This document shows, in pieces, positions 17,774 to 63,915 of a stretch of DNA of 64,000 nucleotides. Each line of letters opens with the position of its first letter. The stretch's first letter is position 1. The position numbers were made by a program, and so were the translations under genes. Source of the stretch: Candidatus Woesebacteria bacterium (GTDB lineage Bacteria > Patescibacteriota > Microgenomatia > UBA8517); assembly GCA_963784785.1 (NCBI GenBank), contig CAWASW010000001.1, positions 9,312 through 73,311 of the forward strand, written 5' to 3'. The notes below the pieces were generated by a model. It made no database searches. It was given only the letters and a program-made list of their open reading frames with translations, and was not told where the DNA came from.

Positions 17774-17942
17774 AACACACTGATTTTACTATACTTTCGG
17801 CCTAAAAAGGTAGTTTCACTAAGTAAACGCTTCTACAACCAATTTCAGCATTGTCCGAGTAATCGGACGAAAGTGTTATTATTTTAACGAAAAACAACAA
17901 ATCATTTAAGGCTAAACAAGTGACCGTTTATGCAACGGTATC
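17748..17942 (-). mobile_element. MITE copy A (about 195 bp), flanked by a 9-bp TSD GGCTCCCCC; inverted relative to copy B
   Basis: 100% identical, reverse-complemented, to 21089..21281. Termini match the TIRs of the IS at 24734..25904. The interior has three hairpins (GAGACCG-N8-CGGTCTC, GTCCGA-ttac-TCGGAC, ACCGTT-N6-AACGGT). The direct repeat GGCTCCCCC abuts both ends. Confidence 0.65.
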
Positions 17943-18700
17943 GGCTCCCCCCGCGTGTTGGGCCTCTTACAGTCATGGCTGGGCCAATTTCTATAAATAG
18001 CGGTATCTCCGAAATAACGGAATTATTGGTAGGTGTTGAGTATAAATTTATACTAACTGCAGCAGGAGGACCTAATAAAATTAATATGAAATGTAAAGAC
18101 AATATTTATAAATTTACAAAAAATAACGACGTAGGAGTTTGGACAACTAAAGTTAAGTTTTCAGAAGAAGGACAATATTTACCTGAAATAGTTGCAGAGG
18201 ACGGAGCAGGAAACATAGAAACAGTGAACAGTGAACAATTGAAAGTTAACGGTTTAGGAAAACTCAAAAATGGAATAATCACTGTTTACTGGTACGATAA
18301 TTTTGAGAAAAAATTTGTGAAGTGGGATGCAGAACCTTATGGACAAGTTAATCCAATTAATACTAATGACTTAGCTGGTTATTCTATATTGTTACCAAGT
18401 GGAAAGTATTATCTTGAGGCAAAAGCTATTGGAAAAAGAACAAGTGTAACTAATATTATAGAGACTCATGAAACAGTTTATATAAATGACGATTGGGAGC
18501 TATCACCGTCATGGAAATTTTGGCAATTTAGAGAACAGAAAATTGTTAATCCTAAAAAGCTTGGTAATGAATCTTGGAAGGATGTTAGTTTTGCTCTTCC
18601 AAAAGTTAACTTAAATAATTTATCGACCTTAGATATTCGAGGAAAAAAACAGTTGTCAGTTTGTTATCTTCATGGCATCCATCTACAAATGATTATCTAA
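17930..18700 (+). CDS. 3' portion of the MITE-split surface protein (Ig-like repeats), reading from an ATG supplied by the MITE terminus
   Basis: Begins atgcaacggtatc|ggctcccc, with the first 13 nt in the MITE. In frame with ORF 16691..17773 once the MITE is removed. AEDGAGN/VTDTTGN Ig-like repeats continue the upstream domain pattern. Confidence 0.5.
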   Translation: MQRYRLPPRVGPLTVMAGPISINSGISEITELLVGVEYKFILTAAGGPNKINMKCKDNIYKFTKNNDVGVWTTKVKFSEEGQYLPEIVAEDGAGNIETVNSEQLKVNGLGKLKNGIITVYWYDNFEKKFVKWDAEPYGQVNPINTNDLAGYSILLPSGKYYLEAKAIGKRTSVTNIIETHETVYINDDWELSPSWKFWQFREQKIVNPKKLGNESWKDVSFALPKVNLNNLSTLDIRGKKQLSVCYLHGIHLQMII

Positions 18701-18966
18701 AAGTAATCGATGAATTAATTAAAAATAAATATAGTGCTTTCCCAATTTTGGTGCAAGAAAAAGAGACATCTGCAACAGCTCTCGAAAGAAGAGGCAAATA
18801 TGGAGCTAATATTTATGCTGATCCAGACGGAGAGATTTTAAATGAAGTTGTCATCTCTGGTTTGCCAACAACTTGGATAGTCAATAGATTTGGACAGGTT
18901 GTAAAAACAAAGGTAGGTGGAATATCCTTTCAGGAAGTGCTTGAAGTACTGAATAGTATAGATTAA
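18661..18966 (+). CDS. TlpA/thioredoxin-like (redoxin) C-terminal segment lacking the CxxC cysteines; joined to 17930..18700 through a frameshift at an A7 run near 18640
   Basis: GLPTTWIVNRFGQVVKTKVGGISFQEVLEVL matches the C-terminal end of TlpA/ResA redoxins. The position of WCPPC reads SSWHPST. One extra A in the ggAAAAAAAcag run fuses the frames (DIRGKKKTVVSLLSSWHPST...). Confidence 0.45.
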   Translation: MLSSWHPSTNDYLKVIDELIKNKYSAFPILVQEKETSATALERRGKYGANIYADPDGEILNEVVISGLPTTWIVNRFGQVVKTKVGGISFQEVLEVLNSID

Positions 18967-19064
18967 CAGATTGCTTCACTTTTGTTCGCAATGACACACA
19001 TAAAAGTATGTACTAAAAGTTATTGGCTTATCAAATTGGGAGTTAGTGCAAGAACAGTCAAACG

Positions 19065-19394
19065 CTATATCAAGTTAATTAATTTCTGGATTTCCTGCAT
19101 GTGTTTTTGAATTGTTTCTTGGTCACGAAAATTTTTTGAAAAATTAGCTAGCCATGGTAATGTTTTCAATATTGATTCTTTTGTTGGATTATCAAAATCT
19201 CCGTTAGTTTCCTCAAAAGCTTGGCTTATAATTTGGGTACAATACAGCCTATTGGAAGTTTCATCAACCTTTTCAGTTAAGTCTGATATCTCTGTTTGAT
19301 TACAATGGGCATCGTAGAAACAACTAACTAAAGCACCTTTTACCATTTCTGGAGTAATTTCTTTTGTTGTATCAATGCTGTAAATCAAACTCAT
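19065..19394 (-). CDS. Hypothetical protein (109 aa)
   Basis: ORF only; no motif recognised. Confidence 0.35.
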   Translation of the reverse strand: MSLIYSIDTTKEITPEMVKGALVSCFYDAHCNQTEISDLTEKVDETSNRLYCTQIISQAFEETNGDFDNPTKESILKTLPWLANFSKNFRDQETIQKHMQEIQKLINLI

Positions 19395-19440
19395 TAGTTT
19401 AATTGTACTACAAATAATGTATTATTAAATAATACTGCCC

Positions 19441-20937
19441 ATGTGGATAATATTTGCCTTAGAAAATTTATATTTTGCTTTAAATATCTTTGCTTCTCTT
19501 ACTTTTTTTTCAGTAGCTTGGCTTTACTTTGATGCGTGGAAGGCCTTGAGATCAAACAGAGAAATTTGGAAGATTGTAGCCTTTATTATTTTAGGAATAT
19601 CTTTTTTGTTTCGAGGAATGGACATGAGAGGTGTTGAAATTTTTCAAAGCTTAGATATTTACTTGAGAGCTTTAGGCTATATGCTGTTAGTTGTAGGTTT
19701 AGTTATAGATCCACTCCAACCTCGTCCTGAGGACGATCGGCCTTTGGCTGATAAAAATATGGCATTTGTTTTGATCGCTTTTCCTCCACTTTTTTTCTTG
19801 TCACCAGTATTAGCTGCAATAGTTGCAGTTCTGTATTTAAGACGGGCTAGTATTGGGCTTGAACGTCATATTTACCCACCTGCAATCTCTTTCTTTTCTC
19901 TATCTATTTATGAATTAACTTTTAGCTTAAATAGTTTTAGAGTTACTGATAATTTAAATTTATTTAATATTTTGGCTCCATTTGGGCCTATGTGGTTGGC
20001 CAATTTAGCATTTTTATTTTTAGCAATTTTATTTTTAGGAAGATGGGTTTTTAGATATTTACTAAAACAATTTCAGTCTCAACTTTTTATGGTTATGATG
20101 AGTTTGGTTTTGTCAGTTTATTTAATAGTTACAGTTAGTTTTACTGGTCTTCTTCTAAACAATTTAAAGACTCAGATACTACAAGAACTTACATCAGAAG
20201 CTAAAGTTTTGGAATTTGCATTTAATGCAAAAAAGAGTGAACTACTGTCACTAGCACAACTTCTTGCAAGGTCGGACCCTGCAGGTTTGGCAGGGTCCGA
20301 CCTTAACACGAGCTCTCACGATTCTTTAGTTGTTTTTGACAAAGATGGCCTTGTCACATATCGTGCTGAAGACACCGAGAGGAAAGGGGATTCGATTTCG
20401 GGGGATAATTTAGTCAAGCAAGTTTTGTCTGGCAAGGAAAATTCAAACATAGTAGTTAAAGAAGGAGTAACGGCTCCAACAGTAATGATAGTTTCAGGTG
20501 CTCCAATAATGGCAAACGGAGTAGTCAGTGGTGGCGTTATCGTCGGTGATTTGATTGATAACTCATATCTTGAGGGTTTTAGTAAGCTAACAGGACTTAA
20601 ATCTGCAGTCTATGGAAATAATATATTAAGTGCAGGTGGAACCGTTGGAATTACTGAAACTGATTCTAAGATAAAAGAGACGGTTTTAACAAAAGGTGAA
20701 ACCGTAGCTCTTGAAAATAGATGGTTAAATTATGCTTTCTTGTCTGTTTATTCGCCACTTAAAGACGTTGACGGAAACCCTGTAGGAATGTACTTTGTAG
20801 GTCGCCCTCAAGTAGAAGTTTTAAATCTTGCTAGTAAAACTTTGGAGTCGGTTTTCTTGGGTACAATCTTCTTGTTGTTATTATCGATGATACCTGCAAA
20901 GCTTATAGCAAATAGTATTACAAAACAAATTAAATGA
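19441..20937 (+). CDS. Polytopic membrane protein with C-terminal extracytoplasmic sensor-like domain and terminal TM, no output domain (truncated-sensor-like)
   Basis: Multiple N-terminal TM helices, a roughly 200-aa soluble region, then TM VFLGTIFLLLLSMIPAKLIA; ends just before a non-coding stretch and MITE-B. Confidence 0.5.
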   Translation: MWIIFALENLYFALNIFASLTFFSVAWLYFDAWKALRSNREIWKIVAFIILGISFLFRGMDMRGVEIFQSLDIYLRALGYMLLVVGLVIDPLQPRPEDDRPLADKNMAFVLIAFPPLFFLSPVLAAIVAVLYLRRASIGLERHIYPPAISFFSLSIYELTFSLNSFRVTDNLNLFNILAPFGPMWLANLAFLFLAILFLGRWVFRYLLKQFQSQLFMVMMSLVLSVYLIVTVSFTGLLLNNLKTQILQELTSEAKVLEFAFNAKKSELLSLAQLLARSDPAGLAGSDLNTSSHDSLVVFDKDGLVTYRAEDTERKGDSISGDNLVKQVLSGKENSNIVVKEGVTAPTVMIVSGAPIMANGVVSGGVIVGDLIDNSYLEGFSKLTGLKSAVYGNNILSAGGTVGITETDSKIKETVLTKGETVALENRWLNYAFLSVYSPLKDVDGNPVGMYFVGRPQVEVLNLASKTLESVFLGTIFLLLLSMIPAKLIANSITKQIK

Positions 20938-21043
20938 CGGACAAAATTATATTTAGTATAGGGATTTTTATTAGTTTGGTAATTGTGTGTACAAGTGGGT
21001 TTTTGTTTTATAAAACCCAAACAGTTAAAATTGCAAGTGACGA

Positions 21044-21064
21044 GTTACGAGTTACGAGTATTCA
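21044..21064. repeat. Heptanucleotide tandem repeat (ACGAGTT x3)
   Basis: acgagttacgagttacgagta read directly from the sequence. Confidence 0.6.
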
Positions 21065-21088
21065 AACCCCTGAACCGACGATGAAAGA

Positions 21089-21281
21089 TACCGTTGCATA
21101 AACGGTCACTTGTTTAGCCTTAAATGATTTGTTGTTTTTCGTTAAAATAATAACACTTTCGTCCGATTACTCGGACAATGCTGAAATTGGTTGTAGAAGC
21201 GTTTACTTAGTGAAACTACCTTTTTAGGCCGAAAGTATAGTAAAATCAGTGTGTTTTAGGAGACCGAAATGTAACGGTCTC
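21089..21281 (+). mobile_element. MITE copy B, flanked by a 9-bp TSD ACGATGAAA
   Basis: Exact reverse complement of 17748..17942; ACGATGAAA is present on both sides. Confidence 0.65.
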
Positions 21282-21628: not shown

Positions 21629-21935
21629 ATGTCAACCAAAGTTCTAATTACAGAAGATGATCCTTTGATGAGTAGAATGTATCAAAAGATTTTTACTTTT
21701 GAGGGTTATGAAGTAATTATGGCAGGGAACGGTGAAGAAGGCCTTGAAAAAGCTAAGCTCGAAAAACCTACAATAATTCTTCTTGATGTCATGATGCCAA
21801 AAATGAATGGGTTACAGATGCTTGAGAAACTCAAGCTTGATCCAGATACCAAAAAAATTCCTGTAATTATGCTTACTAATTTGGCTGGCGAAAAAGATGC
21901 AGAAAATGCAATGAGTAAAGGTGCAGTAAAATATA
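21629..21935 (+). pseudogene. CheY-like single-domain response regulator truncated by IS insertion; the displaced 3' end lies at 23067..23169
   Basis: REC domain motifs (ITEDD, ILLDVMMPKMNG, IPVIMLTN, K in AMSKGAVKY) end at the IS boundary. After the IS, the duplicated 8 bp continues the original frame: ...AVKYIVKSEFEPKQIVDMVKEILAGYTRDSIPETK*. Confidence 0.65.
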
Positions 21936-21963
21936 GGCTTAATGGAACTAATGTGTTGTTTTT

Positions 21964-22491
21964 CTAATCCTGTTTTGTTTTATTATCGGCCTTCATTTTT
22001 TCAAAGTTGTAATAATATACAAACCATTTAAGGTAACTTTCCCAACGAGTCTTTTTAAGGCCTTTATGTCTTAACCATCTTTGTCCTATATGCCCAAATG
22101 TAGCTTCAATTTCATTTGTTGTTTTTGGCATAGTTGGGTGGTCTAAAAACTTGAATGAGGTTTTTGGAAGTTTAATTAGGATCCTGACAGCTTTTCTCAC
22201 ACCTTTATGAATATACCAACTGTGGCCAGAATCATCTGTCCTCATCTCTTTCAGAAAGAAGAAATTAGCCTTAACCCAATCTTTTAAGATTGTTTCCCAG
22301 TATTTCAAAGCTTCATGACTTTCTATGAACCAAATGTGGTTTGCAATTTTTATTAATTCTTCAATTCTTCTATCTTTTGAGTGTCTACCAAGTGCATTTA
22401 CAATATCTCTATGCATATGAGCAAGACATATCTGATGTGGAGAGTGGGGGATACACTTCATCAACCGCAGAACAAATGGCAGTTCCTCCAT
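21964..22491 (-). CDS. Transposase C-terminal part (+1 frame relative to 22409..22987; junction at a C5 run)
   Basis: HQICLAHMHRDIVNAL continues the alignment with the 24752 transposase (VWQLCQNHYKHNL). Frames fuse if the C-run in tatCCCCCactc is one shorter. Confidence 0.6.
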   Translation of the reverse strand: MEELPFVLRLMKCIPHSPHQICLAHMHRDIVNALGRHSKDRRIEELIKIANHIWFIESHEALKYWETILKDWVKANFFFLKEMRTDDSGHSWYIHKGVRKAVRILIKLPKTSFKFLDHPTMPKTTNEIEATFGHIGQRWLRHKGLKKTRWESYLKWFVYYYNFEKMKADNKTKQD

Positions 22492-22987
22492 CTGTTACAG
22501 AGCCTGAAAATGTGTATTTTAATTCCTCCTTTATGAACCTCAAATCCTTAACTATTTTTGTTGAAGCCTCTCTACCAGCAATAGATACATGCAAAAGGTA
22601 CAAAGTTCCACTTTGTCTATACAGCATCAAGACAAACCATCTTCCAAACCAAAGCCCATCAATCAAAAGATATGCAGTATCAATTCTTCCAGACAAAGTT
22701 TGATCAAATCTAGGAAGTTTTGGAGGATCAAGAAGCAATAACTTATGAAATTCACCCTCCAAATATCTTACAGACAAACCTGAGACAGAAGACAGCATTT
22801 CATATGTCAAACCCCACAAAATATACTGTCTGAAAAGATCAACTACTTTAAAATCTTTCTTTTTATTGTGGTAAATTCTTGAAGTTTTACAAACTTTACA
22901 AAACCATCTTTTCTTTCCAGTTCCAGTCTTTCCCCACAGAAACATTTTACTATTACAGGATATGCACAAAAGTGTTCTTTGACCCAT
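22409..22987 (-). CDS. Transposase N-terminal part (C4 zinc finger, HTH, start of DDE domain)
   Basis: CISCNSKMFLWGKTGTGKKRWFCKVCKTS zinc finger; LLIDGLWFGRWFVLMLYRQSGTLYLLHVSIAGRE aligns with LLVDGKYVKVKGYDRKIPVIYGIDYLTHDIVHFVFGPSE of the 24752 transposase. Confidence 0.65.
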   Translation of the reverse strand: MGQRTLLCISCNSKMFLWGKTGTGKKRWFCKVCKTSRIYHNKKKDFKVVDLFRQYILWGLTYEMLSSVSGLSVRYLEGEFHKLLLLDPPKLPRFDQTLSGRIDTAYLLIDGLWFGRWFVLMLYRQSGTLYLLHVSIAGREASTKIVKDLRFIKEELKYTFSGSVTDGGTAICSAVDEVYPPLSTSDMSCSYA

Positions 22988-23193
22988 TGAATACTATTCA
23001 AACTCAAAATGAGGCGTATTATCAACTATATCTTTCTGTTATATCAACACACTATGCTATTAAGCCAAAATATATTGTAAAGTCTGAATTTGAGCCAAAA
23101 CAAATTGTAGATATGGTTAAAGAAATCTTAGCAGGTTACACAAGAGACTCAATTCCTGAAACAAAGTAATATTTTAACATCGTACGTACTCCA

Positions 23194-24733: not shown

Positions 24734-25904
24734 GATACCGTTCATAAACGGTCACTTGATAAGCTTCAGAACGTCTTCAATTTTGTAATTGTCTTTTAAA
24801 GTTTGTTGTAACGATGATTTTCCATTTAGTTTTTTAAATTGTTTGGTGCAGTCTGTAAATGGTTTTAATCGCCTTTTTAAAAAATAAGCATTGAGCCAGA
24901 GTTTCGCTGTTTTGTAGTTTTGAAAACCTTTGATTGTTTTAAGCCTGCCTTGAAGATGTGAGTTGAAACTTTCGATTAAGTTGTTTGTTCTTGGAATGTG
25001 AGGCATCTTTGTATATGCAAAAAGATCAGCTGATCTTTTTGCAATATCAAGCATAACTTTTTTGCATAAATCATCTTTGGTTGCATATTTGTTGTATATT
25101 TTTGAAGCTCTACTTTTAAAATCTTCAGTTGATATTTTGTTTGAAAATAATGTTTCAATTTCATTCATAAAAGGTCTGTAAGTTGGGTCATTGTTTAAAT
25201 TTAAAGTTGTTCTTAAATTGTGTTTGTAGTGGTTTTGGCACAGTTGCCAGACTGCAGTGGGATAAACACTTAAACACGCCTGTGGCGTGTTCTGGTTGTC
25301 ATCTGAAATAATTGCTTGAAGTGGATAATTTGCAAGCTTTAGTGAAGAGAAAAACTTAAGAAGTAAGCTGTAATTTTCTGAAGGTCCAAAGACAAAATGG
25401 ACTATATCATGTGTAAGGTAATCAATGCCATAAATAACAGGGATTTTTCTGTCATAGCCTTTGACTTTGACATATTTGCCATCAACTAAAAGTATCCCAC
25501 AAAACCTGTTGCAATAATTTCTTGTGATATCAATACAAAGTGGCAATCTTTCTAAAACTTCAAAGTAAGCTTCATATGATTTTCCAACTGATATTTTTAA
25601 ATCATCTGCAATTGTTCTAAAAGATAAACCTGACATGTGAGATAACAACAACTTTGAAGAATTTAACTTCTTAGCTCTATTTATTTGAAAATAGCAACCA
25701 CAATCTTTGCAAAAATACTTTAATTTCCCACGTCTAACACCTTTTTTAATTACATCTTTTGAAGAACATCTAGGACAACTATAAACTCTTTTTTCATGCC
25801 TGAATGATACCAGAATTAAGAAAGCTTCACATAGTCAAAACACCAACTTGGATGGAATTATAGGGATTAACTACCAAAATAAGTGACCAAAAATGAACGG
25901 TCTC
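24734..25904 (-). mobile_element. IS element (about 1171 bp) of the same zinc-finger/DDE family; parent of the 195-bp MITE; 24-bp imperfect TIRs; 9-bp TSD ACAAAAGTA
   Basis: Left end GATACCGTTCATAAACGGTCACTTG (24734-24758) against right end AAGTGACCAAAAATGAACGGTCTC (25881-25904). ACAAAAGTA is directly repeated at 24725-24733 and 25905-25913. MITE termini match these ends. Confidence 0.65.
24752..25797 (-). CDS. Transposase (zinc finger + HTH + DDE, about 349 aa), needs a +1 A in an A6 tract directly after the ATG
   Basis: The frame upstream of the track ORF encodes (K)RVYSCPRCSSKDVIKKGVRRGKLKYFCKDCGCYFQINRAKK... The only ATG (25795-25797) sits one frame off: atgAAAAAAgag. Seven A's would give MKKRVYSCPRC... 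Confidence 0.55.
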
Positions 25905-27392
25905 ACAAAAGTAATATTAATTTTAGCTATTGGTACACTTTTTATATTAATTTCTTCAATTGTTTTTACCTCAAAGTTGATTGGTCAGAAATTAGATGAA
26001 CTAGAAGTCCGTAGTGCTGTAATAGACTTACAGAGGATAGATGGAGCTATAGCTTCCGAAAAAAGTAATTTATTGGATAAAATATCTGATTGGGCTTCTT
26101 GGGATGATACATATCAGTTTGTAAAAGATAATAATACTGCTTATATAAAATCAAATTTACAGCAGACTACCTTTGATAGTTTAAGACTTAGCTTTATGAT
26201 CTTCTTGGACGTCAATGGTAATACAGTGCATGAAGTAAAAGCCCCCGTTGGTATTAATAAATATTTAGTAAAAGATGAATTTTTGTTGAAATTTGATAGT
26301 TTAAAGTCAAATAAGTCAGGCATGATAATGCTTCCTGATGGTATGTATTTGGTTGCTTCTAAACAAATACTTAATAGTGCTTCTGAAGGTCCGGCAAGAG
26401 GAACATTAATTTTTGGTAGGTACTTCGGTAAGCAAGAAATAGATAAAATAGCAATTTCAACTAAACATGATGAAATTAGATTGCTTTCGATGGGTTCTCA
26501 AAAAATGAATGACACAGAAATAACTAACACTAATGAAAATATCTTATCTGCTAAAAATGTTGTAAAAGACATTTTTGGTAAAAATATTGCATATTATGTT
26601 GTAGACATAGAACGTGGAATTCATCTACAGGGAATTCAGAGTACTCAATATACGATTGGGTTTTTGATAGGTATTAGCATTATTTTCTTTGTAATGGTTT
26701 TATTTTTCTTAGCATCTCTCGTTTTGTCTCCACTTAAAAAAATATCATCAGATGCAAATAACATAACTCAGTCTAAAAACTTTATGCTTCGAGTGAAACA
26801 TGAATCTAAAGATGAAATTGGGCTACTTTCAAGAAATATAAACGAAATGCTTGACTCACTCCAGTTGGCAAAAGATGCCGTCTATTCAGAGACCGAAAAA
26901 ATTAAGACATTTTTCGATGTCGTTTCGGGAATAGTAGTGGTTATTAACAAAGATGGTGTTGTCGTTTCTGTTAATCAAAAAGGCGCAGAATTTTTAGAAT
27001 ATGAAACAAATGAGATCGTTGGTAGGAATTGGTTTGACGTCTTTATCCCAGAGGAAGATAAAGAAAAAATGAAGCAAACATTTGTCGACATGGTTACTAA
27101 TATCAGCGCAGACAAAAATAAATATTTTGAAAATCTAGTTGTTACAAAGTCCGGTAAAAAATATTTAATGGGATGGCACAATAGTTTGTTGCTAGACAGA
27201 AATAGGAATATCCTAGCATCTGTCAGTCACGGAGAAGATATTACGGACAAAAGGAAGATAGAAGATGATGAAAAATCACAAAAAGAAGAGCTGGAAAAAT
27301 TAAACCAACTAATGATGGGTAGAGAGATTAAAATGATTGAACTTAAAAAGGAAATTGAAAAATTGAAACAGAAAGATGAAAATACGCAATAG
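25893..27392 (+). CDS. Membrane signal-transduction protein (TM - periplasmic sensor - TM - HAMP-like - PAS - coiled coil; no kinase domain) with an IS-derived start codon
   Basis: PAS-like core FFDVVSGIVVVINKDGVVVSVNQKGAEFLEYETNEIVGRNWFDVF. Its ATG lies 12 nt inside the IS right end. The original start MLSIRTKV... is at 24710, on the other side of the IS. Confidence 0.55.
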   Translation: MNGLTKVILILAIGTLFILISSIVFTSKLIGQKLDELEVRSAVIDLQRIDGAIASEKSNLLDKISDWASWDDTYQFVKDNNTAYIKSNLQQTTFDSLRLSFMIFLDVNGNTVHEVKAPVGINKYLVKDEFLLKFDSLKSNKSGMIMLPDGMYLVASKQILNSASEGPARGTLIFGRYFGKQEIDKIAISTKHDEIRLLSMGSQKMNDTEITNTNENILSAKNVVKDIFGKNIAYYVVDIERGIHLQGIQSTQYTIGFLIGISIIFFVMVLFFLASLVLSPLKKISSDANNITQSKNFMLRVKHESKDEIGLLSRNINEMLDSLQLAKDAVYSETEKIKTFFDVVSGIVVVINKDGVVVSVNQKGAEFLEYETNEIVGRNWFDVFIPEEDKEKMKQTFVDMVTNISADKNKYFENLVVTKSGKKYLMGWHNSLLLDRNRNILASVSHGEDITDKRKIEDDEKSQKEELEKLNQLMMGREIKMIELKKEIEKLKQKDENTQ

Positions 27393-28185
27393 AATATTAG
27401 TAACAATACTTTCAGTTGTCATCCTGATTGTTGGACTGGACTCGGTAATAATTTTCTTTTTTGCCCAAAAATATTTAAGTACTGCTTCACAAAATTTGCT
27501 TACAACAACATCTAGATCCAAATCAGAAAACATTTCGACGCTAATTAATGAACAAAAACAGAATGTAATTGATATTGCAACAGCATCAATATTTAGGGAT
27601 TATTATGTTGATACTACAAATATTGTAAATAAAGATAAAGTGCAGCAAAGACTTGAGAGGACAATAAAGGGAAATCCGGCAATTAGGGAGATATATATAC
27701 TCGATGTTTCAGGAGTTGTTCTCTTATCAACTGATGAGGAAGACTTTGGGAAAAATATTATGGCGGATGACAACATTGCAGAGGCCAAAAATGGGCCAAG
27801 TGTTGGAAACGTACGTTTATATGGTGATGACAAAAAAACAATTTATACAATTTCCGCACCGATTTTTAACTCCTCATCGATTCTTGCTGGTATTTTTGTT
27901 GTACGTTTTAATACTAATTTTATAAATACTATAGTTTCTAGTGGATCTGAAACAACAAAAAGTGAAGATGTTTTTTTAGTTGATAAAAATTATTATTTCT
28001 TAACACCAACACGATATTACAATCAGGATGCGGTTTTGTCAAAAAAAGCTGAAACATTAAACGTTCAAAGATGTTTTTCTCAGGACGAAATAATATATGT
28101 TTCGGAGCGATTGACTGGACAAAGATATGTAAATGAACATCGTGGGCATCCTGCAATAACTTTAGCTCATTTTGGCTACACATAA
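27376..28185 (+). CDS. N-terminal part of a sensor histidine kinase (TM + Cache-like extracytoplasmic domain)
   Basis: N-terminal TM then a roughly 230-aa sensor domain; overlaps the next ORF at a T4 run. Confidence 0.5.
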   Translation: MKIRNRILVTILSVVILIVGLDSVIIFFFAQKYLSTASQNLLTTTSRSKSENISTLINEQKQNVIDIATASIFRDYYVDTTNIVNKDKVQQRLERTIKGNPAIREIYILDVSGVVLLSTDEEDFGKNIMADDNIAEAKNGPSVGNVRLYGDDKKTIYTISAPIFNSSSILAGIFVVRFNTNFINTIVSSGSETTKSEDVFLVDKNYYFLTPTRYYNQDAVLSKKAETLNVQRCFSQDEIIYVSERLTGQRYVNEHRGHPAITLAHFGYT

Positions 28186-29737
28186 TTATATTCCTGAAAT
28201 CTCGGCCTGTTTGATTGCAAAAATTGATAAAACTGAAATCAACACTCCTATTTTTAATTCTGCTGTTGCAATTATTGCCACGATGGGTTTGGGTGTGGCC
28301 ATAATCGCTATTATTATTAACTTTTTTTTGAATAAGATTGTTGGTCCGCTTGAGAGTTTGAAAAAGGGAGCTGAAGAGCTTCAGAACGGAAACCTAGAAG
28401 CTGTGATTAAAATCGATTCCAATGATGAAATAGGTGAAGTATCCAAGGCGTTTAACTCCATGGCCGTAAAACTTAATGAGTTATACAAAAATCTTGAGTT
28501 AAAAGTTACGGACAGAACTTTGGAGTTAAATAGCAAATTGTTGCAAATTGAAGATCAAAACAAAAAACTTGACCAAAATAAATCAGCAATGCTTAATTTA
28601 CTAGAAGATTCTAAGACACTTGAAGAGGAATTAAAAGCTGAAAAGCAATCAGTTGAAAAGAAAATTATTGAAAGAACTAGAGAAGTTGATGAAGAAAAGA
28701 CAAAGCTGATGGCCGCTATTGAGGCTTTAACAAAAGCTTTTGTCATGATGGACTTAAATGGAGAAATTATTCTTGTAAATGAAAATCTTAATAAAATTTT
28801 TAATTTAGAGAAACAGAATTGGTTAATATCTGACATACAAGAACAATTAGGCGACAGTTTTGATTTTGTAAAAGCATATAAAAACAATATTCTTGAAAAG
28901 AAAAAGATGGTATATGACGATATAGCATTAGGTTCGAAAATCTTACAAATTCGTTTTAGCCCAGTTTTTGATAAAGATAAAGTGAATGGCGTACTTGCAA
29001 TAATTGGAGACGTAACTGATGAAAAAGTGTTGGCAAGATCCAAAGACGAATTCTTTTCAATAGCCAGTCATGAATTAAGAACTCCTCTTACTGCAATAAG
29101 AGGAAATACCTCAATGATGCTTGATTATTACAAGGAGTCATTTAAAGATCCTGAATTAAATCAGATGCTTTTAGATACTCATGAGGCTAGTGTCAGATTA
29201 ATAGGCATCGTAAATGACTTCTTAGACATGAGTAGGTTAGAGCTTAGTAAGATAGAATTTAAAATGGAAAAAATTATCTTGGGTGATCTCATTGGAGAAG
29301 TTTTGAAAGAATATAAGGTTACAGGTTTACAAAATAAGTTGTATTTGAAATTTGTTGAGTCAAAGACAGAAATACCGGCTGTAAACGCTGATGTTAATAG
29401 AGTTAAACAAGTTGTAATTAATCTTATTGGAAATAGCGTTAAGTTTACTAAAGAAGGTGGTATATCTATTAGCTTGACTTATAACAACGATTTTGTAGAA
29501 GTGCATGTAGCCGATACTGGCTATGGAATACCTCTTGCAAATCAGTCATTGCTGTTTAGAAAATTTCAACAAGCTGGAGATAGTACCTTAACTAGAGATG
29601 GTGCCAAAGGTACTGGCCTTGGACTATACATCTCTAAACTTATGGTTGAGGGTATGGGAGGTAAGATATTTTTGGAAAAATCAGAGGAAAATAAAGGTTC
29701 TACTTTTACATTTAGCCTGCCTGTTTTTAAAAAGTAG
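28172..29737 (+). CDS. Sensor histidine kinase core (TM, HAMP, coiled coil, PAS, HisKA, HATPase_c)
   Basis: HAMP: LESLKKGAEELQNGNLEAVIKIDSNDEIGEVSKAFNSMAVKL. H-box: FFSIASHELRTPLTAIRGN. N/G boxes: INLIGNSVKFT, DTGYGIP, GTGLGLYISK. Confidence 0.75.
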   Translation: MATHNYIPEISACLIAKIDKTEINTPIFNSAVAIIATMGLGVAIIAIIINFFLNKIVGPLESLKKGAEELQNGNLEAVIKIDSNDEIGEVSKAFNSMAVKLNELYKNLELKVTDRTLELNSKLLQIEDQNKKLDQNKSAMLNLLEDSKTLEEELKAEKQSVEKKIIERTREVDEEKTKLMAAIEALTKAFVMMDLNGEIILVNENLNKIFNLEKQNWLISDIQEQLGDSFDFVKAYKNNILEKKKMVYDDIALGSKILQIRFSPVFDKDKVNGVLAIIGDVTDEKVLARSKDEFFSIASHELRTPLTAIRGNTSMMLDYYKESFKDPELNQMLLDTHEASVRLIGIVNDFLDMSRLELSKIEFKMEKIILGDLIGEVLKEYKVTGLQNKLYLKFVESKTEIPAVNADVNRVKQVVINLIGNSVKFTKEGGISISLTYNNDFVEVHVADTGYGIPLANQSLLFRKFQQAGDSTLTRDGAKGTGLGLYISKLMVEGMGGKIFLEKSEENKGSTFTFSLPVFKK

Positions 29738-32937: not shown

Positions 32938-33894
32938 TTATCTATTTTTGTTTTCTAAATAACTGTTTATTGCGTTAACTGTCGTTAACCAATTTCTGCC
33001 TTCTTTGTGTGCATCAATCCGACTCTTTCTTGCTAGTAGGTTTAGATGCTTTGTCGATAGATTAGTTATATTGCTAATTTTAGATAGCAACAAATACTTA
33101 TCGTCAATTGATTTTGATTCAGTTATTGTTTCTAAATATATATTCAATGATCTTTCAACTGATTGCGCAATAAACGTAATAAAAGGAATAATGTCTCCAT
33201 TATCAGCTTTTGAAAGCGATTGATAATATTTTTTTCGATCGTTTTTTAAAATTGTAATCAATGGGTATCCTTGTTGTAATAATATAACGTTGATTATCAG
33301 GCGTGATGTGCGGCCATTGCCGTCATCAAAAGGATGAATCGATACTAATTTGTGATGCATTATGCTTGCAAGTTCAATGGGATGCATTTTATTTTGGTTT
33401 TTTTTAAACCAAGAAATAATTTCTGACATGAAATATGGTATTTTTGTTGCGATTGGAGGTTTCAACTTAGATCCTGCTATTGCAACTGATCCAATCCTGT
33501 ATTTACCAGCAATACTTTTATCAATTGGTAAAATAACTAAATTTTGAATTTGTCGAATTAAATTTTGAGACATTATCAGACTGGAATCAAAATCAATTAA
33601 ATCATAGATAAATTCCAATGCATCTTGGTGACTTTTGGCCTCAAGATGATTCTTGAATGATTTACTTTTAACTGTGATTCCTTCACTAATTATTAAATAT
33701 GTTTCTTGATAAGTTAAATTGTTACCTTCAATAGCATTGCTGTTGTATGTCATCTCAATCATGAACCTCTCTCTTAATTTGCTAACAATGGTAGGGGATA
33801 ATGGCCGATAAGTTTTTAACTTATGCCATTTTTCATCAATTCTATTAACCAAATCCTGAGATAAATAGGCTGGTTTATTATGGTATAGCTTCAT
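32938..33894 (-). CDS. Fic/Doc (Fido) family protein
   Basis: Canonical Fic motif HPFDDGNGRTSRLI (HPFx[DE]GNGR). Confidence 0.8.
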   Translation of the reverse strand: MKLYHNKPAYLSQDLVNRIDEKWHKLKTYRPLSPTIVSKLRERFMIEMTYNSNAIEGNNLTYQETYLIISEGITVKSKSFKNHLEAKSHQDALEFIYDLIDFDSSLIMSQNLIRQIQNLVILPIDKSIAGKYRIGSVAIAGSKLKPPIATKIPYFMSEIISWFKKNQNKMHPIELASIMHHKLVSIHPFDDGNGRTSRLIINVILLQQGYPLITILKNDRKKYYQSLSKADNGDIIPFITFIAQSVERSLNIYLETITESKSIDDKYLLLSKISNITNLSTKHLNLLARKSRIDAHKEGRNWLTTVNAINSYLENKNR

Positions 33895-39003: not shown

Positions 39004-39074
39004 GGGCTGTTAGTATAGTGGTAATACACATCATTCGCATTGATGAAACGCCGGTCCAATTCCGGCACAGTCCA
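39004..39074 (+). tRNA. tRNA-Ala (anticodon CGC)
   Basis: Hand-folded cloverleaf: acceptor GGGCTGT/ACAGTCC with G3:U70 (Ala identity); D-stem GTAT/ATAC; anticodon stem CATCA/TGATG with loop TTCGCAT giving anticodon CGC; T-stem GCCGG/CCGGC; discriminator A; no encoded CCA. Confidence 0.75.
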
Positions 39075-39129
39075 CAATTTATATTGGTTTATATTTTGTC
39101 ATAATATAAATTAACAGTAATTTATATTG

Positions 39130-49077: not shown

Positions 49078-49106
49078 TGTGTCATTGCGAGCGAAGCGTG
49101 GCAATC
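49078..49106 (+). repeat. 29-nt repeat TGTGTCATTGCGAGCGAAGCGTGGCAATC (copy 1), abutting the copy B IS insertion
   Basis: Reverse-complement copy at 63916..63944. Contains an imperfect hairpin ATTGC-GAG-CG-AAG-CG-TGG-GCAAT. Confidence 0.55.
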
Positions 49107-49137
49107 CTAGGCTTAATGGAACTAATGTGTTGTTTTT

Positions 49138-49665
49138 CTAATCCTGTTTTGTTTTATTATCGGCCTTCATTTTTTCAAAGTTGTAATAATATACAAACCA
49201 TTTAAGGTAACTTTCCCAACGAGTCTTTTTAAGGCCTTTATGTCTTAACCATCTTTGTCCTATATGCCCAAATGTAGCTTCAATTTCATTTGTTGTTTTT
49301 GGCATAGTTGGGTGGTCTAAAAACTTGAATGAGGTTTTTGGAAGTTTAATTAGGATCCTGACAGCTTTTCTCACACCTTTATGAATATACCAACTGTGGC
49401 CAGAATCATCTGTCCTCATCTCTTTCAGAAAGAAGAAATTAGCCTTAACCCAATCTTTTAAGATTGTTTCCCAGTATTTCAAAGCTTCATGACTTTCTAT
49501 GAACCAAATGTGGTTTGCAATTTTTATTAATTCTTCAATTCTTCTATCTTTTGAGTGTCTACCAAGTGCATTTACAATATCTCTATGCATATGAGCAAGA
49601 CATATCTGATGTGGAGAGTGGGGGATACACTTCATCAACCGCAGAACAAATGGCAGTTCCTCCAT
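49138..49665 (-). CDS. Transposase C-terminal part (copy B)
   Basis: Identical to 21964..22491. Confidence 0.6.
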   Translation of the reverse strand: MEELPFVLRLMKCIPHSPHQICLAHMHRDIVNALGRHSKDRRIEELIKIANHIWFIESHEALKYWETILKDWVKANFFFLKEMRTDDSGHSWYIHKGVRKAVRILIKLPKTSFKFLDHPTMPKTTNEIEATFGHIGQRWLRHKGLKKTRWESYLKWFVYYYNFEKMKADNKTKQD

Positions 49666-50161
49666 CTGTTACAGAGCCTGAAAATGTGTATTTTAATTCC
49701 TCCTTTATGAACCTCAAATCCTTAACTATTTTTGTTGAAGCCTCTCTACCAGCAATAGATACATGCAAAAGGTACAAAGTTCCACTTTGTCTATACAGCA
49801 TCAAGACAAACCATCTTCCAAACCAAAGCCCATCAATCAAAAGATATGCAGTATCAATTCTTCCAGACAAAGTTTGATCAAATCTAGGAAGTTTTGGAGG
49901 ATCAAGAAGCAATAACTTATGAAATTCACCCTCCAAATATCTTACAGACAAACCTGAGACAGAAGACAGCATTTCATATGTCAAACCCCACAAAATATAC
50001 TGTCTGAAAAGATCAACTACTTTAAAATCTTTCTTTTTATTGTGGTAAATTCTTGAAGTTTTACAAACTTTACAAAACCATCTTTTCTTTCCAGTTCCAG
50101 TCTTTCCCCACAGAAACATTTTACTATTACAGGATATGCACAAAAGTGTTCTTTGACCCAT
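49583..50161 (-). CDS. Transposase N-terminal part (copy B)
   Basis: Identical to 22409..22987. Confidence 0.65.
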   Translation of the reverse strand: MGQRTLLCISCNSKMFLWGKTGTGKKRWFCKVCKTSRIYHNKKKDFKVVDLFRQYILWGLTYEMLSSVSGLSVRYLEGEFHKLLLLDPPKLPRFDQTLSGRIDTAYLLIDGLWFGRWFVLMLYRQSGTLYLLHVSIAGREASTKIVKDLRFIKEELKYTFSGSVTDGGTAICSAVDEVYPPLSTSDMSCSYA

Positions 50162-50245
50162 TGAATACTATTCAAACTCAAAATGAGGCGTATTATCAAC
50201 TATATCTTTCTGTTATATCAACACACTATGCTATTAAGCCCAATC

Positions 50246-51262
50246 CTATTTAGGTAACTTATCTTTGAATTTGTTCTTAAGGGATTCAAGCTCTGTAATC
50301 TCTTCTTCAAGTTTTTCTTCCAACACCTCTTGTTTTGCTGTTAGTTTTTTGCTTATTAAATAACCTGCCAAAATTATTATTAATATCGAGAATATGATAA
50401 TTGCAATTAGAGTTACAGGAATTACCCATACGAAATTTTCTGCAAGCAATGTTTTGCCCGTTTCACCATAGTTTGCTACTAAATCAACTTTGTATTTACC
50501 AAACATCCATGTTTGACCTAATTTGGCTTCATAAACTCTTTTAGCATTTGGGAAAATATTTTTATCTTCAAGCGTTACACGCTCAACTTCTTTTCCAAAC
50601 CAATCGGTTAATATTATCTGTCCCTTTGGATTGATATGGTACCCACCTTTATTTACAATCTCAAAATTGACTGGAATCTTACCAAATTCTAAGAATTTTG
50701 GAGTCTTAAATAAATTTACAAATGAAGATTCTTCTACTAATCCATTAACTTTGATACTTAATAGACCAACTATTCGAGGTGACACAAAAGATACGCTTTC
50801 GTTATCTCCTGTCTCATTAATTTGCCCTGTTTGCTCAAAGATTATTGCAGCATATCGACCTCCAGCAGTAGCCTCAGTTGGTACAGTTACCTTGAAATTA
50901 ACCTTTAGAACATCTCCTGATGGAATTACTGCCTTATCAAATGGTAACTTTACCCAATCGTTGATTTGATCTTCCAATAAAACTGGTGCACCATCATCTT
51001 CTGTAACGACGAAATCGACAACCTTTAAATTTCCAGAAATCGGAACAATGCTTTCATTGAAAAATTTAATTTGCAGATTTTCTGATTTTCCGGCATCAAG
51101 CGCCACAGTCTGTCTTGCAGGAGCAACAACCAAAGGAATTTTGGCCTGAGCCAAAACTCCTTGAGGAAATAGGGTATAGGTGATAGCGAATAGGGAAAAC
51201 AGACCAGCAAAAATTAGTTTTATTTGTCTTTTATCTATAACCTGTAATCTATTCGCTATCAT
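50246..51262 (-). CDS. DUF916/DUF3324-like cell-surface protein: signal peptide, beta-rich ectodomain, C-terminal TM anchor and charged coiled-coil tail
   Basis: AQAKIPLVVAPARQTVALDAGKSENLQIKFFNES...; C-terminal TM VIPVTLIAIIIFSILIIILAGYLISKK then EEKLEEEITELESLK. Confidence 0.45.
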   Translation of the reverse strand: MIANRLQVIDKRQIKLIFAGLFSLFAITYTLFPQGVLAQAKIPLVVAPARQTVALDAGKSENLQIKFFNESIVPISGNLKVVDFVVTEDDGAPVLLEDQINDWVKLPFDKAVIPSGDVLKVNFKVTVPTEATAGGRYAAIIFEQTGQINETGDNESVSFVSPRIVGLLSIKVNGLVEESSFVNLFKTPKFLEFGKIPVNFEIVNKGGYHINPKGQIILTDWFGKEVERVTLEDKNIFPNAKRVYEAKLGQTWMFGKYKVDLVANYGETGKTLLAENFVWVIPVTLIAIIIFSILIIILAGYLISKKLTAKQEVLEEKLEEEITELESLKNKFKDKLPK

Positions 51263-53687: not shown

Positions 53688-54473
53688 TTAATAGCTTGGT
53701 ATTGCTGTAAACATAATTATATTCTTATAAACACCAGATGGTTGAACTGATCCAACATTAACTTTGTAAGTAATTGTTGCAGTTCTTGCGCTCCCAACAT
53801 TGCTAGAAGTCATAATAGTGGCGGCTGCTTCTGCCGAATTCCTGTCTGAAAATTGTCTAAAATAGGTGCTGTTAGTAAAATCAGCCGCGATGTCGTCTCC
53901 TGTCATATTAAATCCAAATCCGTATTTGGTTGTGGATGTCCAAGTGGCTGCTGTTGTTTCACTGCAAGTTGTATTACATAATGTATCTACAATGTCGTTT
54001 GCTCCGTCTGATGTTTGCATTGGATGATTTTCAGAAGCTTTTATGTTGTAGCCTCCTGCACCACCATTTGAAACTACTAATGTAGAGGTTGCTGTTGCTG
54101 GAGTGTCTGGAGAGAGCGTTCCAAAATTTATTTGTATGTCGCTTACAGAGAAGCTAAAAGGAATTATTGAATTAATATATTGAAATCCTGATTTTGTTCT
54201 ATGCCCAGCTGATGAATATAACCCTGGGGCTGTTTGTCCTATTGTTGTATTCAAATTGTAATTTGTTGATGTTGGTATTCCAGCGCCAGAATTAAAATTA
54301 GGGAAAACTATGCGGTAGTTGGGAGACTCAATTCTTTCCTGAGCATGGACAGGAAATGGCAATAACCAAGCACCAATGATCAAGCAAATTATAAAACTTA
54401 AATTCCAATAAAATAAATTTTTAGATTTAATATTTTGGATTTTGATATTGTTTGGACGTTGGTTATTGAACAT
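53688..54473 (-). CDS. Secreted Thr-rich surface protein (261 aa), paralogue of 51263..52762 (WxL-like?)
   Basis: Signal-like N-terminus; ATWTST motif; shared C-terminal ...FTAIPSY. Confidence 0.45.
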   Translation of the reverse strand: MFNNQRPNNIKIQNIKSKNLFYWNLSFIICLIIGAWLLPFPVHAQERIESPNYRIVFPNFNSGAGIPTSTNYNLNTTIGQTAPGLYSSAGHRTKSGFQYINSIIPFSFSVSDIQINFGTLSPDTPATATSTLVVSNGGAGGYNIKASENHPMQTSDGANDIVDTLCNTTCSETTAATWTSTTKYGFGFNMTGDDIAADFTNSTYFRQFSDRNSAEAAATIMTSSNVGSARTATITYKVNVGSVQPSGVYKNIIMFTAIPSY

Positions 54474-58335: not shown

Positions 58336-58821
58336 GTGTTTTTTATTTCAACTAACGCAGGTCCTGAGATTTCTCAGGACTTGGTAGTTGAAATTTCTGG
58401 AGCTGTTCAAAATCCTAATGTCTACAAATTGCCAAGTGGGTCAAGGATTGATGATTTGTTGATTTCCGCAGGAGGTCTTGCGGCAGATGCTGATAGAATT
58501 TGGGTCGAGAAAAATATTAATAAAGCAGCCAAATTAGTTGATGGACAGAAGTTGTACATATATCACTTAGGAGAGGCGAGTGCTAAAAATGATGGGGGTA
58601 TCAAACCATATCAAGAGGTAATAGGGTATAGTGCACAGGGTTTAGTTAATATCAACACATCTAGCCGGTCGGAGCTGGAGGAGCTGACTGGAATTGGCCC
58701 TGTTTACGCCACAAATATCATTGAACACAGACCTTACTCAGATGTTCAAGAATTAGTAACTAAGGGAGCAATTAATCAAAAAGTTTTGGAAAAAATCAAA
58801 AATGCGATTTCTACATATTAG
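58336..58821 (+). CDS. comEA: ComEA-like competence protein (SLBB + tandem helix-hairpin-helix)
   Basis: NINTSSRSELEELTGIGPVYATNIIEHRPYSDVQELVTKGAINQKVLEKIKN is a typical HhH C-terminal region. Confidence 0.75.
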   Translation: MFFISTNAGPEISQDLVVEISGAVQNPNVYKLPSGSRIDDLLISAGGLAADADRIWVEKNINKAAKLVDGQKLYIYHLGEASAKNDGGIKPYQEVIGYSAQGLVNINTSSRSELEELTGIGPVYATNIIEHRPYSDVQELVTKGAINQKVLEKIKNAISTY

Positions 58822-59860: not shown

Positions 59861-60594
59861 TTTTAATTGCAGCCTCAATTTGGCTTGCTGTTTTTAGCAT
59901 AGATGACCGGCTTCATATTATTGCTTGTGACGTTGGTCAAGGCGATGCAATTTTAATTCAAAAGAATACAACACAGATTTTAATTGATGGTGGGCCTAAT
60001 AAAAGTGTCTTAACCTGCTTGGGTAAGTACATGCCATTCTATGATAGGCAAATAGAGCTTGTAATTTTGACTCATCCTCAAGCAGATCATTATGGTGGGC
60101 TACTAGATGTCTTTAAAACTTATAACGTGGCTAAGTTTGCAGAGTATAATCGTAATTCTAGCAGTCCAGACTATAGAGTGCTACAAAATGCAGGTGTTTT
60201 GCCTATAAATCTAACAAAAGGTACTAAGATGAGGTTAGGTTTGATCTACTTAGATATAGTAGTTGAATCTAAAGAACAGGGGATCGTAACATTGCTTAGG
60301 TATTTGGATCATAAGGCCTTATTCATGGCTGATGTGGAAAATAAAGTGAGTGATGAGCTTTCAGAAAATAGCGAAATACAAAATACCGAATATATCAAAT
60401 TGAATCACCATGGTTCTAAGAATGGAATAACTCAAAAGCTACTTGATGCAGTCAAGCCTAAAACAGCTATCATAAGTGTGGGGAAGAATAGTTATGGACA
60501 TCCGAGTGAAGAAGTAATAAGGATATTGAGTGATATGAATATAAAAATAAAAAGAACTGATCAACTGGGAGATATTGATGTAGTAGTCGATTAA
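59722..60594 (+). CDS. comEC: ComEC C-terminal metallo-beta-lactamase domain (frames fuse with one extra A in an A6 run at about 59846)
   Basis: ACDVGQGDAILIQ...LIDGGP...LTHPQADHYGG...NHHGSKNG...YGHPS: MBL motifs of ComEC. cgAAAAAAtatt with seven A's gives ...LWYFEKNIIYFLILIAASIW... Confidence 0.7.
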   Translation: MDNSLYHGLGSSWWGSRSNRACNWQNDTICYVSTIMVFRKNIIYFLILIAASIWLAVFSIDDRLHIIACDVGQGDAILIQKNTTQILIDGGPNKSVLTCLGKYMPFYDRQIELVILTHPQADHYGGLLDVFKTYNVAKFAEYNRNSSSPDYRVLQNAGVLPINLTKGTKMRLGLIYLDIVVESKEQGIVTLLRYLDHKALFMADVENKVSDELSENSEIQNTEYIKLNHHGSKNGITQKLLDAVKPKTAIISVGKNSYGHPSEEVIRILSDMNIKIKRTDQLGDIDVVVD

Positions 60595-63814: not shown

Positions 63815-63915
63815 TTTTTTTGAGCAAGTAGAATAAAAGTAGCGGATGCTAACAATAAATAACCAACAAATTGTTACGTATCCGCTACTGAAAGACCCCT
63901 AAAACTTCACTTTCA

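Follow-up and report, generated by a model that had tools for sequence, protein, structure and literature searches.

Two identical copies of a 1131-bp insertion sequence (IS) are carried by the stretch of DNA analyzed here, a window of 64,000 nucleotides from a Candidatus Woesebacteria bacterium (contig CAWASW010000001.1, positions 9,312 to 73,311). The element is an ordinary IS, an unnamed new member of a known family, and was delimited correctly in a preliminary description made from the letters of the window. As assembled, its transposase gene is split into two open reading frames (ORFs), A and B, at a run of five cytosines (C5) in which diverged relatives have one base fewer. On balance, the evidence favors a real and recently active IS with a clone-specific break, most likely throttled in its activity but still autonomous.

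Both copies lie in direct orientation with their starts 27,174 bp apart and are 100% identical over their whole length (Table 1). Each is bordered by its own 8-bp target-site duplication (TSD), AAAATATA for copy 1 and CAATCCTA for copy 2, and the exact 8/8 repeats and the coordinates agree with what had been described before. Identity between the copies extends to 21934..23066 and 49108..50240 (1133 nt); the two extra shared bases, 'TA' to the left of the IS, reflect a chance coincidence of the two TSDs. The terminal inverted repeats (TIRs) are imperfect (22/23 nt) and follow the pattern GGCTTAAT-n8/n7-TGTGTTG, whose spacer is 8 nt long in one repeat and 7 nt long in its counterpart, so that the n7 spacer of the preliminary description applies to one end only. 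A promoter-like site is found on the minus strand (-35 TTGATA at 23047-23042, -10 GATAAT at 23023-23018); the count of promoter matches is not above chance, and it is the position alone of this site that is suggestive. Neither solo ends nor derivatives of the IS of the miniature inverted-repeat transposable element (MITE) type occur in the window, where the TIR pattern matches the two full copies only, and Rfam and tRNA scans revealed nothing associated with the IS.

A third copy of 1131 nt, again 100% identical and with the same C5 run, resides on the 379-kb contig CAVZPH010000003.1 (L009) of the metagenome-assembled genome (MAG) MFD02832.bin.3.209. It was the single locus returned by a contig scan of one genome per species and has its own TSD, AGTTTTCG. 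In the Logan k-mer assembly of run ERR12037365, a 1076-nt contig is identical to IS positions 56-1131 and ends exactly at the IS terminus, as would be expected of a true multi-flank repeat, in which several different flanks branch. In total, at least three copies exist, all of them 100% identical. The exact ORF B product is present in the protein index on six contig blocks (1 + 1 + 4), so that the element may in fact have 5 or more copies. The pattern is not due to chance, since three copies and a diverged relative each possess a different perfect 8-bp TSD and since the ends of the element are the ends of homology to related ISs that stem from other samples.

The insertion site of copy 1 can be reconstructed. 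In silico excision of this copy together with one TSD results in a CheY-like receiver of 133 amino acids (PF00072 at 4e-25), whose C-terminal 31 residues align gapless to orthologs, with 88-95% identity, across the junction. An ortholog locus (L012; 73% nucleotide identity, collinear over 1.2 kb) contains the uninterrupted sequence GGAGCTGTAAAATATATTGTTAAATCA with a single AAAATATA and represents the empty site. Copy 1 removes the C-terminal 31 residues from the response regulator. Copy 2 sits between two convergent genes. A composite transposon was considered and rejected, as the outer flanks are not alike (AAAATATA on the left versus CAATCCTA on the right) and a matched TSD of its own borders each copy. 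The two copies are two independent insertions, and the earlier claim that a genuine IS has inserted independently at both places is upheld by the distinct flanks, the individual TSDs, the empty site at L012 and the third copy elsewhere. The matched TSD pair kept by each copy implies that copies 1 and 2 have not yet recombined with each other.

Deletion of one C from the run fuses ORFs A and B to a protein of 340 amino acids, from which the family can be deduced. The NCBIfam IS1249 model NF033544 covers residues 7-326 (E = 4e-35, 121.6 bits versus a cut-off of 300) and NF048019, which describes the Zn-binding type of IS256 variant, covers residues 11-323 (E = 6e-26, 91.4 bits versus a cut-off of 150). 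Both alignments cross the junction between ORFs A and B uninterrupted. In Pfam, the fused protein has sub-threshold matches to Transposase_mut, MULE and IS66, and relatives at 55-64% identity have precomputed PF00872 matches. Two CxxC motifs at 8-11 and 30-33 are followed by D110 (LLIDG), D166 (VTDGG), C187-x2-H190 and E294 (TTNEIEA), and the CxxC pairs, the three acidic residues, C187 and H190 are invariant in an alignment of 27 homologs. The preliminary description of a transposase with zinc finger, helix-turn-helix (HTH) and DDE catalytic core is borne out by these profile alignments and invariant residues. Prokaryotic Mutator-like transposases combine a DDE triad with a C/D(2)H signature, a spacing of 99-138 residues between the second D and the E, and a distance of 11-19 residues from the second D to the C/D(2)H signature (PMC3942029). 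The corresponding D-E spacing of 128 residues is inside the published range, and C187-L-A-H190, which is located in ORF B, starts 21 residues past D166 (published range 11-19).

A structural comparison points to the same family. The AlphaFold2 model of a 92%-identical relative (P0001; predicted local distance difference test 81, predicted template modeling score 0.69) finds only ISCth4 transposase chains among its five top PDB matches (E-values from 1e-6 to 5e-6, TM score 0.41-0.52, about 315 columns; for the best match, E = 1e-6 and TM score 0.44-0.52), with retroviral integrase cores ranking after them. IS256 and ISCth4 generate 8-bp A/T-rich TSDs and transpose by a copy-out/paste-in mechanism (PMC7780238); the duplications AAAATATA, CAATCCTA and AGTTTTCG, as well as CAAAATGG flanking the relative on contig L002, fit the 8-bp A/T-leaning property of the IS256 family. 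Together, the profile, motif and structure-model matches leave little doubt that the element belongs to the IS256 (Mutator-like) family and, within it, to a Zn-ribbon IS1249-like clade. The window IS shares with ISCth4 and the IS256 family the RNase-H-like DDE core with an alpha-helical insertion between the second D and the E, the C(2)H signature, the 8-bp A/T-leaning TSDs and imperfect TIRs of about 22 nt, and it shares with the IS1249 and NF048019 groups the N-terminal Zn-binding domain followed by an IS256-type core, over a full-length profile alignment. It differs from ISCth4 (PDB 6XGX/6XG8/6XGW) in size, with 1131 instead of 1503 bp and 340 instead of about 400 amino acids, and from the IS256 family in its 4-Cys Zn-ribbon N-terminus, in TIRs without TGTAAA and in the split ORF of this clone, whereas all intact relatives have a single ORF. 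TIRs of IS256-family members are imperfect, about 20-30 bp long and carry a subterminal TGTAAA; this motif is absent from the first 40 nt of either end of the window IS, as read by eye, and the subterminal conserved block is TGTGTTG instead. Among plasmid records searched by tblastn, the only named matches are IS1249-family transposases with 98% query coverage and 22% identity, and identity to annotated members of the IS1249 and Zn-binding types amounts to only 22-27%. The clade is best described as a separate and apparently CPR (Candidate Phyla Radiation)-associated one that is abundant in metagenome bins of the Patescibacteria/CPR type. The window also encodes a second transposase, at 24752, which had been proposed as a relative. 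This kinship holds at the family level, as both are IS256-type proteins with a Zn ribbon, but goes no further: the two share 20% identity (pairwise E = 5e-4) and have different ends. Cross-mobilization by the 24752 transposase is unlikely.

The relatives of the element permit a closer look at the break. A homolog search retrieved 438 relatives, and the description given here rests on the best 120 of them. These 120 are almost all single ORFs of 321-346 amino acids. The contig that carries them is in many cases about 1.1 kb in size, as is usual when repeats collapse in an assembly; those with a name come from Patescibacteria and Saccharimonadales. More than 30 relatives with 54-96% amino acid identity are single ORFs, in which the motif …EVYPHxPHQICLAHMHR… is unbroken in all full-length sequences read, and the repaired window protein reads EVYPHSPHQICLAHMHRD at this position. 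On the DNA level, contigs L001 (89% nucleotide identity) and L002 and L010 (80%) align to the window IS end to end, with a gap of 3 nt in L002 toward the 3' end of its gene, and the terminal 45 nt or so are nearly identical between the window IS and L001. At the run, the relatives have one base fewer: TAT-CCCCC-AC in the window corresponds to TAT-CCTC-AT in L001 and to TAT-CCCC-AT in L002, whose IS has its own 8-bp TSD (CAAAATGG). Database entries bearing the break (192, 178, 175 and 150 amino acids) are all 100% identical to the window, and intact members of the 90% clusters are 90-94% identical to it. An intact identical sibling was found neither among the 90%-cluster members nor when the repaired proteins of 340 and 326 aa were looked up exactly; a collection of 15 billion sequences, which includes assemblies of run ERR12037365, does not contain the repaired protein. 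Likewise, diverged copies with the extra C did not appear in a degenerate C4-or-C5 DNA scan of metagenome contigs, which returned one contig, L010, an intact C4 relative from Hainich groundwater. Two relatives, P0084 (231 amino acids) and P0024 (275 amino acids), have short out-of-frame tails at positions unlike the window break; frameshifts, or errors, also arise sporadically in other parts of the family.

Since L001 and L002 have exactly one base fewer and since the break occurs only in entries identical to the window, it is very probably a lineage-specific one-base insertion from C4 to C5 and not a family-wide programmed frameshift. The split at the C5 run had been recognized in the preliminary description, and ORFs A and B and the third copy agree with it. 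Its characterization as conserved is valid among the 100%-identical clonal copies and does not extend to the diverged relatives; all those examined that are not truncated are uninterrupted single ORFs. When the frame is restored, the changes on the window branch amount to 19 synonymous and 7 nonsynonymous ones before the break and to 21 and 6 after it; on the branch of the intact relative L001, the same downstream half has accumulated 17 synonymous and 10 nonsynonymous changes. By these counts, the downstream half was under purifying selection until very recently, and it is otherwise undamaged, which makes the lesion very young relative to the lineage.

How the element might work in this state can be outlined by analogy to IS256 and ISCth4. 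In copy-out/paste-in transposition, the donor would stay in place and new copies would gain an 8-bp A/T-leaning TSD, with a circle junction of the form …ATTAAGCC-spacer-GGCTTAAT… as the expected intermediate. The accumulation of identical copies fits such a mechanism. With it, the combination of identical copies and different TSDs implies that a donor with the frameshift already in place gave rise to them in a burst. The coding strand around the run reads …GTGTATCCCCCACTCTCC…, with GATGAAGTGTAT upstream. The zero frame continues CCC CCA CUC, and the +1-shifted frame, CCC|C AC UCU, gives P-H-S, the ancestral reading. The extra C places D110 and D166 of ORF A out of frame with the C(2)H signature and E294 of ORF B. 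ORF A alone would be the main product, a DNA-binding domain with an incomplete active site (two of three catalytic residues), and one may speculate that it competes for the ends or inhibits transposition. If, on rare occasions, the peptidyl-tRNA-Pro slipped spontaneously by +1 within CCC-CCA, from the first CCC onto the one that overlaps it, the ancestral sequence …VYP-HSPHQICLAH… would be restored. Transposases act at very low levels. A throttled autonomous element is favored because of this property and because all copies are broken, the downstream half is intact and no intact sibling is on record. Among the scenarios in which the frameshift is real, leaky +1 slippage is put forward tentatively as the source of activity, with somewhat less than even chances; it is followed by mobilization in trans by a related clade member or a lost master copy and then by gene conversion. 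CC[C/U]-[C/U] is particularly prone to +1 slippage, as tRNA-Pro pairs equally well in both frames, and rates up to about 1% have been measured in E. coli reporters (PMC4519876). Spontaneous +1 slippage of tRNA-Pro at CCC-C, known from E. coli and Salmonella studies of 1-methylguanosine 37 (m1G37) and elongation factor P (EF-P), involves the same quadruplet as the window IS, and pairing does not differ between the 0 and the +1 frame. The rates of up to about 1% in E. coli, in contrast, refer to a motif next to the start codon, while the site in the window IS is internal, is followed by a common codon and belongs to another organism. A two-ORF, +1-recoding IS that is throttled via tRNA-Pro slippage, potentially depending on the m1G37 or EF-P status of a reduced-genome CPR host, and that is still spreading is conceivable, although improbable.

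Several observations weigh against this account. The fused protein remains below curated cut-offs (PF00872 18.9 versus 21 bits, NF033543 30.4 versus 150), which also holds for the NF033544 and NF048019 scores given above, though the E-values are significant. The A-site codon CCA is not slow, being the commonest Pro codon, no Shine-Dalgarno-like sequence was seen by eye in GATGAAGTGTAT, and no downstream RNA structure is found at the run (z = 0.36); without a stimulatory context, +1 slippage would be inefficient. Moreover, the MAG MFD02832.bin.3.209 stems from the Microflora Danica long-read project and is Nanopore-only, assembled with Flye and one round of Medaka; three to four other single-base homopolymer frameshifts in the window make indel errors in this assembly plausible; and the Logan contig, which may go back to those very reads, is perhaps not independent evidence.

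The last three points raise the question of whether the extra C exists at all. If it were a basecalling or consensus artefact, caused by a systematic signal bias or by one repeat consensus that the assembler spread into each resolved copy, the true state would be C4, with an intact 340-aa transposase and a plain autonomous IS. Such an explanation needs no intact sibling, the repaired run is a perfect match to the invariant family motif, the downstream half is free of other defects and under strong purifying selection, and the Competence domain of comEC and a Redoxin domain elsewhere in the window are continuous only after a base is added. These other suspected errors, however, are missing A's in runs of 6-7 bases, whereas the run in the IS has an extra base in a stretch of 4-5 C's. 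An extra base in a short C run is a much less typical Nanopore error. A frame-break scan combined with a run census tied none of the 24 other C5/G5 runs of the window to a frame break, and all three separately placed and assembled copies have C5. The Logan assembly of ERR12037365 also carries C5 without a break by a bubble, and its unbroken contig indicates that C5 is the dominant state at the read level in this run. The extra C is therefore judged likely to be real in the DNA, and an artefact is the much smaller share of the expectation. The preliminary description had taken the frameshift as real and had not considered a consensus error, an assumption that the Nanopore-only source and the other homopolymer frameshifts of the window call into question.

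If the break is real, it could also be fully inactivating, with copies mobilized in trans by a lost or unassembled intact sibling or by a co-resident relative of the clade. The terminal 45 nt or so, which are almost identical to those of L001 with its intact ORF, the many intact relatives in similar habitats and the presence in the same genome of an apparent case of trans-mobilization, a 195-nt MITE related to the other IS, are compatible with this possibility. An identical or near-identical intact copy is, however, missing from the 15 billion proteins, which makes an identical intact helper less likely; the contig scan of the representative MAG returned the frameshifted copy only, and the sole other transposase of the window differs in its ends and shares just 20% identity. 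Mobilization in trans is rather unlikely as a whole, at about the same level as an artefact. Still less support exists for C5 as a selected programmed +1 site that controls how much ORF A is made relative to full-length transposase. In IS1 and IS3 elements, the shift is by -1 and takes place on A-rich heptamers accompanied by stimulatory structures, in a layout that is conserved across family members. The window IS, in contrast, would shift by +1 at a C5 run that has no stimulator and occurs in one clonal lineage only. It resembles the IS1 and IS3 families and ISMich2 in having two overlapping ORFs, of which the upstream one contains the DNA-binding domain, and in needing a frame change for the full enzyme. 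A precedent is ISMich2, with conserved two-ORF transposases in one Mutator-like group, but with a -1 shift (PMC3942029). Every known copy of the clone has C5 and shows no other damage, CCC-C re-pairs perfectly and the shifted product is the ancestral protein; yet conservation of C5 is lacking, all diverged relatives have one uninterrupted ORF, the frameshifted relatives P0084 and P0024 break elsewhere, a slow A-site codon, a Shine-Dalgarno-like stimulator and an RNA structure are all missing, and the zero divergence in the clone leaves no time for selection on the site. The alignments provide no evidence for an evolved recoding mechanism, and a programmed site is improbable. Gene conversion offers a further route, as copies that inserted intact could have received a later frameshift from one of their number; the last transposition would then be older than the frameshift. 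The 100% identity over 1131 bp in at least three copies is in line with this route, and selection at the level of the host could favor inactivated copies, but every copy must have been converted with no intact one left, and a recent burst from one frameshifted donor explains the identity more simply. Gene conversion is slightly less probable again than a programmed site. The earlier statement that the frameshift predates the last transposition finds support in identical copies with different TSDs, which imply a frameshifted donor; it had left gene conversion out of consideration. Finally, the two copies might be a duplication or collapse artefact of the assembly, for which perfect identity is what a repeat-consensus step would give. 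This idea is essentially refuted by the distinct unique flanks with a matched TSD for each copy, by the conserved response-regulator ORF, collinear with its ortholog, that excision of copy 1 restores, by the third copy with a third TSD on another contig and by the contig from raw-read k-mers that ends exactly at the IS end.

Table 1. Coordinates of the insertion sequence and of directly affected features in the window
Feature	Position	Strand	Remarks
CheY-like response-regulator gene, 5' part (codons 1-102)	21629..21935	+	broken by copy 1
Same response-regulator gene, 3' part (…IVKSEFEPKQIVDMVKEILAGYTRDSIPETK*)	23067..23169	+	from orthologs and the L012 alignment
IS copy 1	21936..23066	transposase on -	identical to copy 2 and L009; homology to L001/L002/L010 begins and ends here
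IS copy 2	49110..50240	-	1131 bp, orientation as in copy 1
TSD of copy 1, left, AAAATATA	21928..21935	.	single AAAATATA at the homologous position of ortholog L012
TSD of copy 1, right, AAAATATA	23067..23074	.	exact 8/8 match to left
TSD of copy 2, left, CAATCCTA	49102..49109	.	exact 8/8 match to right
TSD of copy 2, right, CAATCCTA	50241..50248	.	contains stop codon 50246-50248 (- strand) of the convergent gene 50246..51262
TIR, transposase-distal, GGCTTAATGGAACTAATGTGTTG	21936..21958	+	kept in L001/L002
TIR, transposase-proximal, GGCTTAATAGCATAGTGTGTTG on - strand	23045..23066	-	overlaps promoter-like site; kept in relatives
ORF A, 192 aa	22409..22987	-	CxxC...CxxC Zn ribbon, HTH region, D110 and D166; out-of-frame tail PLSTSDMSCSYA
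ORF B, 175 aa, +1 frame relative to ORF A	21964..22491	-	C187-x2-H190, alpha-helical insertion domain, E294
C5 run (G5 on + strand), copy 1	22446..22450	-	site of 1-nt insertion, in the overlap of ORFs A and B
C5 run, copy 2	49620..49624	-	same as copy 1

The other suspected frameshifts of the window are distributed over several genes. The comEC gene (58802..59860 and 59722..60594) is split at an A6 run (59838-59843); addition of one A yields a 597-aa protein with Competence and metallo-beta-lactamase domains, in which the Pfam Competence domain crosses the junction, and the split reflects a pseudogene or, alternatively, a homopolymer deletion of Nanopore origin. Two ORFs with Ig-like and thioredoxin/redoxin-like domains (17930..18700 and 18661..18966) are separated at an A7 run (18643-18649). 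One added A creates a Redoxin match across the junction, which exists only after this repair, and the Logan contig L011 has the same A7. In the second IS256-type transposase (24752-25800, minus strand), the Zn ribbon (…RVYSCPRCSSKD…) is in frame with the 299-aa ORF but lacks an in-frame start codon; the sole ATG (ATGAAAAAAGAG) lies in a different frame, which an A7 in place of the A6 run at 25789-25794 would correct, and this run is a further homopolymer indel. A dCache ORF (27376..28185) and a HAMP-HisKA-HATPase ORF (28172..29737) overlap by 14 nt in different frames. Removal of one T from a T4 run near 28170 produces a canonical sensor kinase of 786 amino acids, but no profile match crosses the junction, and a frameshift in this histidine kinase is only suspected.

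A small element is also present in the neighborhood of the IS. It is 195 nt long and occurs in three 100%-identical copies, at 17748-17942, at 21087-21281 in inverted orientation and on L009 at 1201-1395. TIRs (GAGACCGTTACA… and …TGCAACGGTATC) and 9-bp TSDs (GGCTCCCCC and ACGATGAAA) identify it as a MITE. One of its ends resembles the sequence just 3' of the transposase gene at 24752..25651 (GTGACCGTTTATGAACGGTATC), and by this resemblance the MITE is probably a non-autonomous derivative of the IS with the 24752 transposase. The inverted pair in the window flanks a 3.1-kb segment (17943-21086) that could invert, and Logan contig L011 corresponds exactly to 17915..21113. On L009, the third copy of the IS lies 25 nt from a copy of the MITE, which itself directly follows an apparent 3' end of a tRNA gene (…GGTTCGAATCC…); the region 1150-1425 of this contig may be a local insertion hotspot. 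Copy 2 of the IS is inserted at the 3' edge of a 29-nt motif, TGTGTCATTGCGAGCGAAGCGTGGCAATC, with which its TSD CAATCCTA overlaps. The motif occurs twice in the window (49079-49107 on the plus strand, 63915-63943 on the minus strand), with 0 occurrences expected by chance. On the 295-kb ENA contig L002 (1518-2966), the 80%-identical intact IS is found directly downstream of a gene for a large serine recombinase (Resolvase/Recombinase/Zn_ribbon_recom).

The 26-kb interval between the two copies contains the second IS256-type transposase, three sensor or kinase ORFs, an M23/LysM peptidase, a GH39-like hydrolase, a SIMPL protein, a Fic protein (32938..33894), two giant ORFs (1548 and 2122 amino acids), an O-antigen-ligase-like Wzy_C protein with TPR repeats and a tRNA-Ala(CGC) gene (39004..39075). 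RecA-type recombination between 1131-bp direct repeats would delete or duplicate the whole interval, and the two 1.1-kb direct repeats are potential recombination substrates. The window has a GC content of 35% and contains a PamT-like pilus gene of CPR type (53688..54473; NF058579, 1e-15, below cut-off), and the named relatives of the IS and of the response regulator belong to Patescibacteria or Saccharimonadia. These features point to a host that is probably of the CPR/Patescibacteria type, and the label Actinomycetota given to the MAG with the third copy is probably mistaken.

With the present analysis, IS ends, TSD length and family are now defined for an unnamed clade that is common in bins of the CPR/Patescibacteria type, and the value of this result lies mainly in annotation. 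The clade has more than 400 members in metagenomes, of which short-read assemblies usually show only contigs of about 1.1 kb. For the genome at hand, one disrupted response-regulator gene is explained by copy 1, and the 27-kb interval between the identical direct repeats is marked as structurally unstable. If the extra C is not real, the element illustrates how apparent 'programmed frameshifts' can result from homopolymer indels of Nanopore-only MAGs, above all in repeats with the same call in each copy. If it is real, the element would be a small natural test case for the spread of a frameshifted IS, and should tRNA-Pro slippage indeed keep it spreading, it would represent a de novo natural example of an IS throttled by a non-programmed +1 slippery site.

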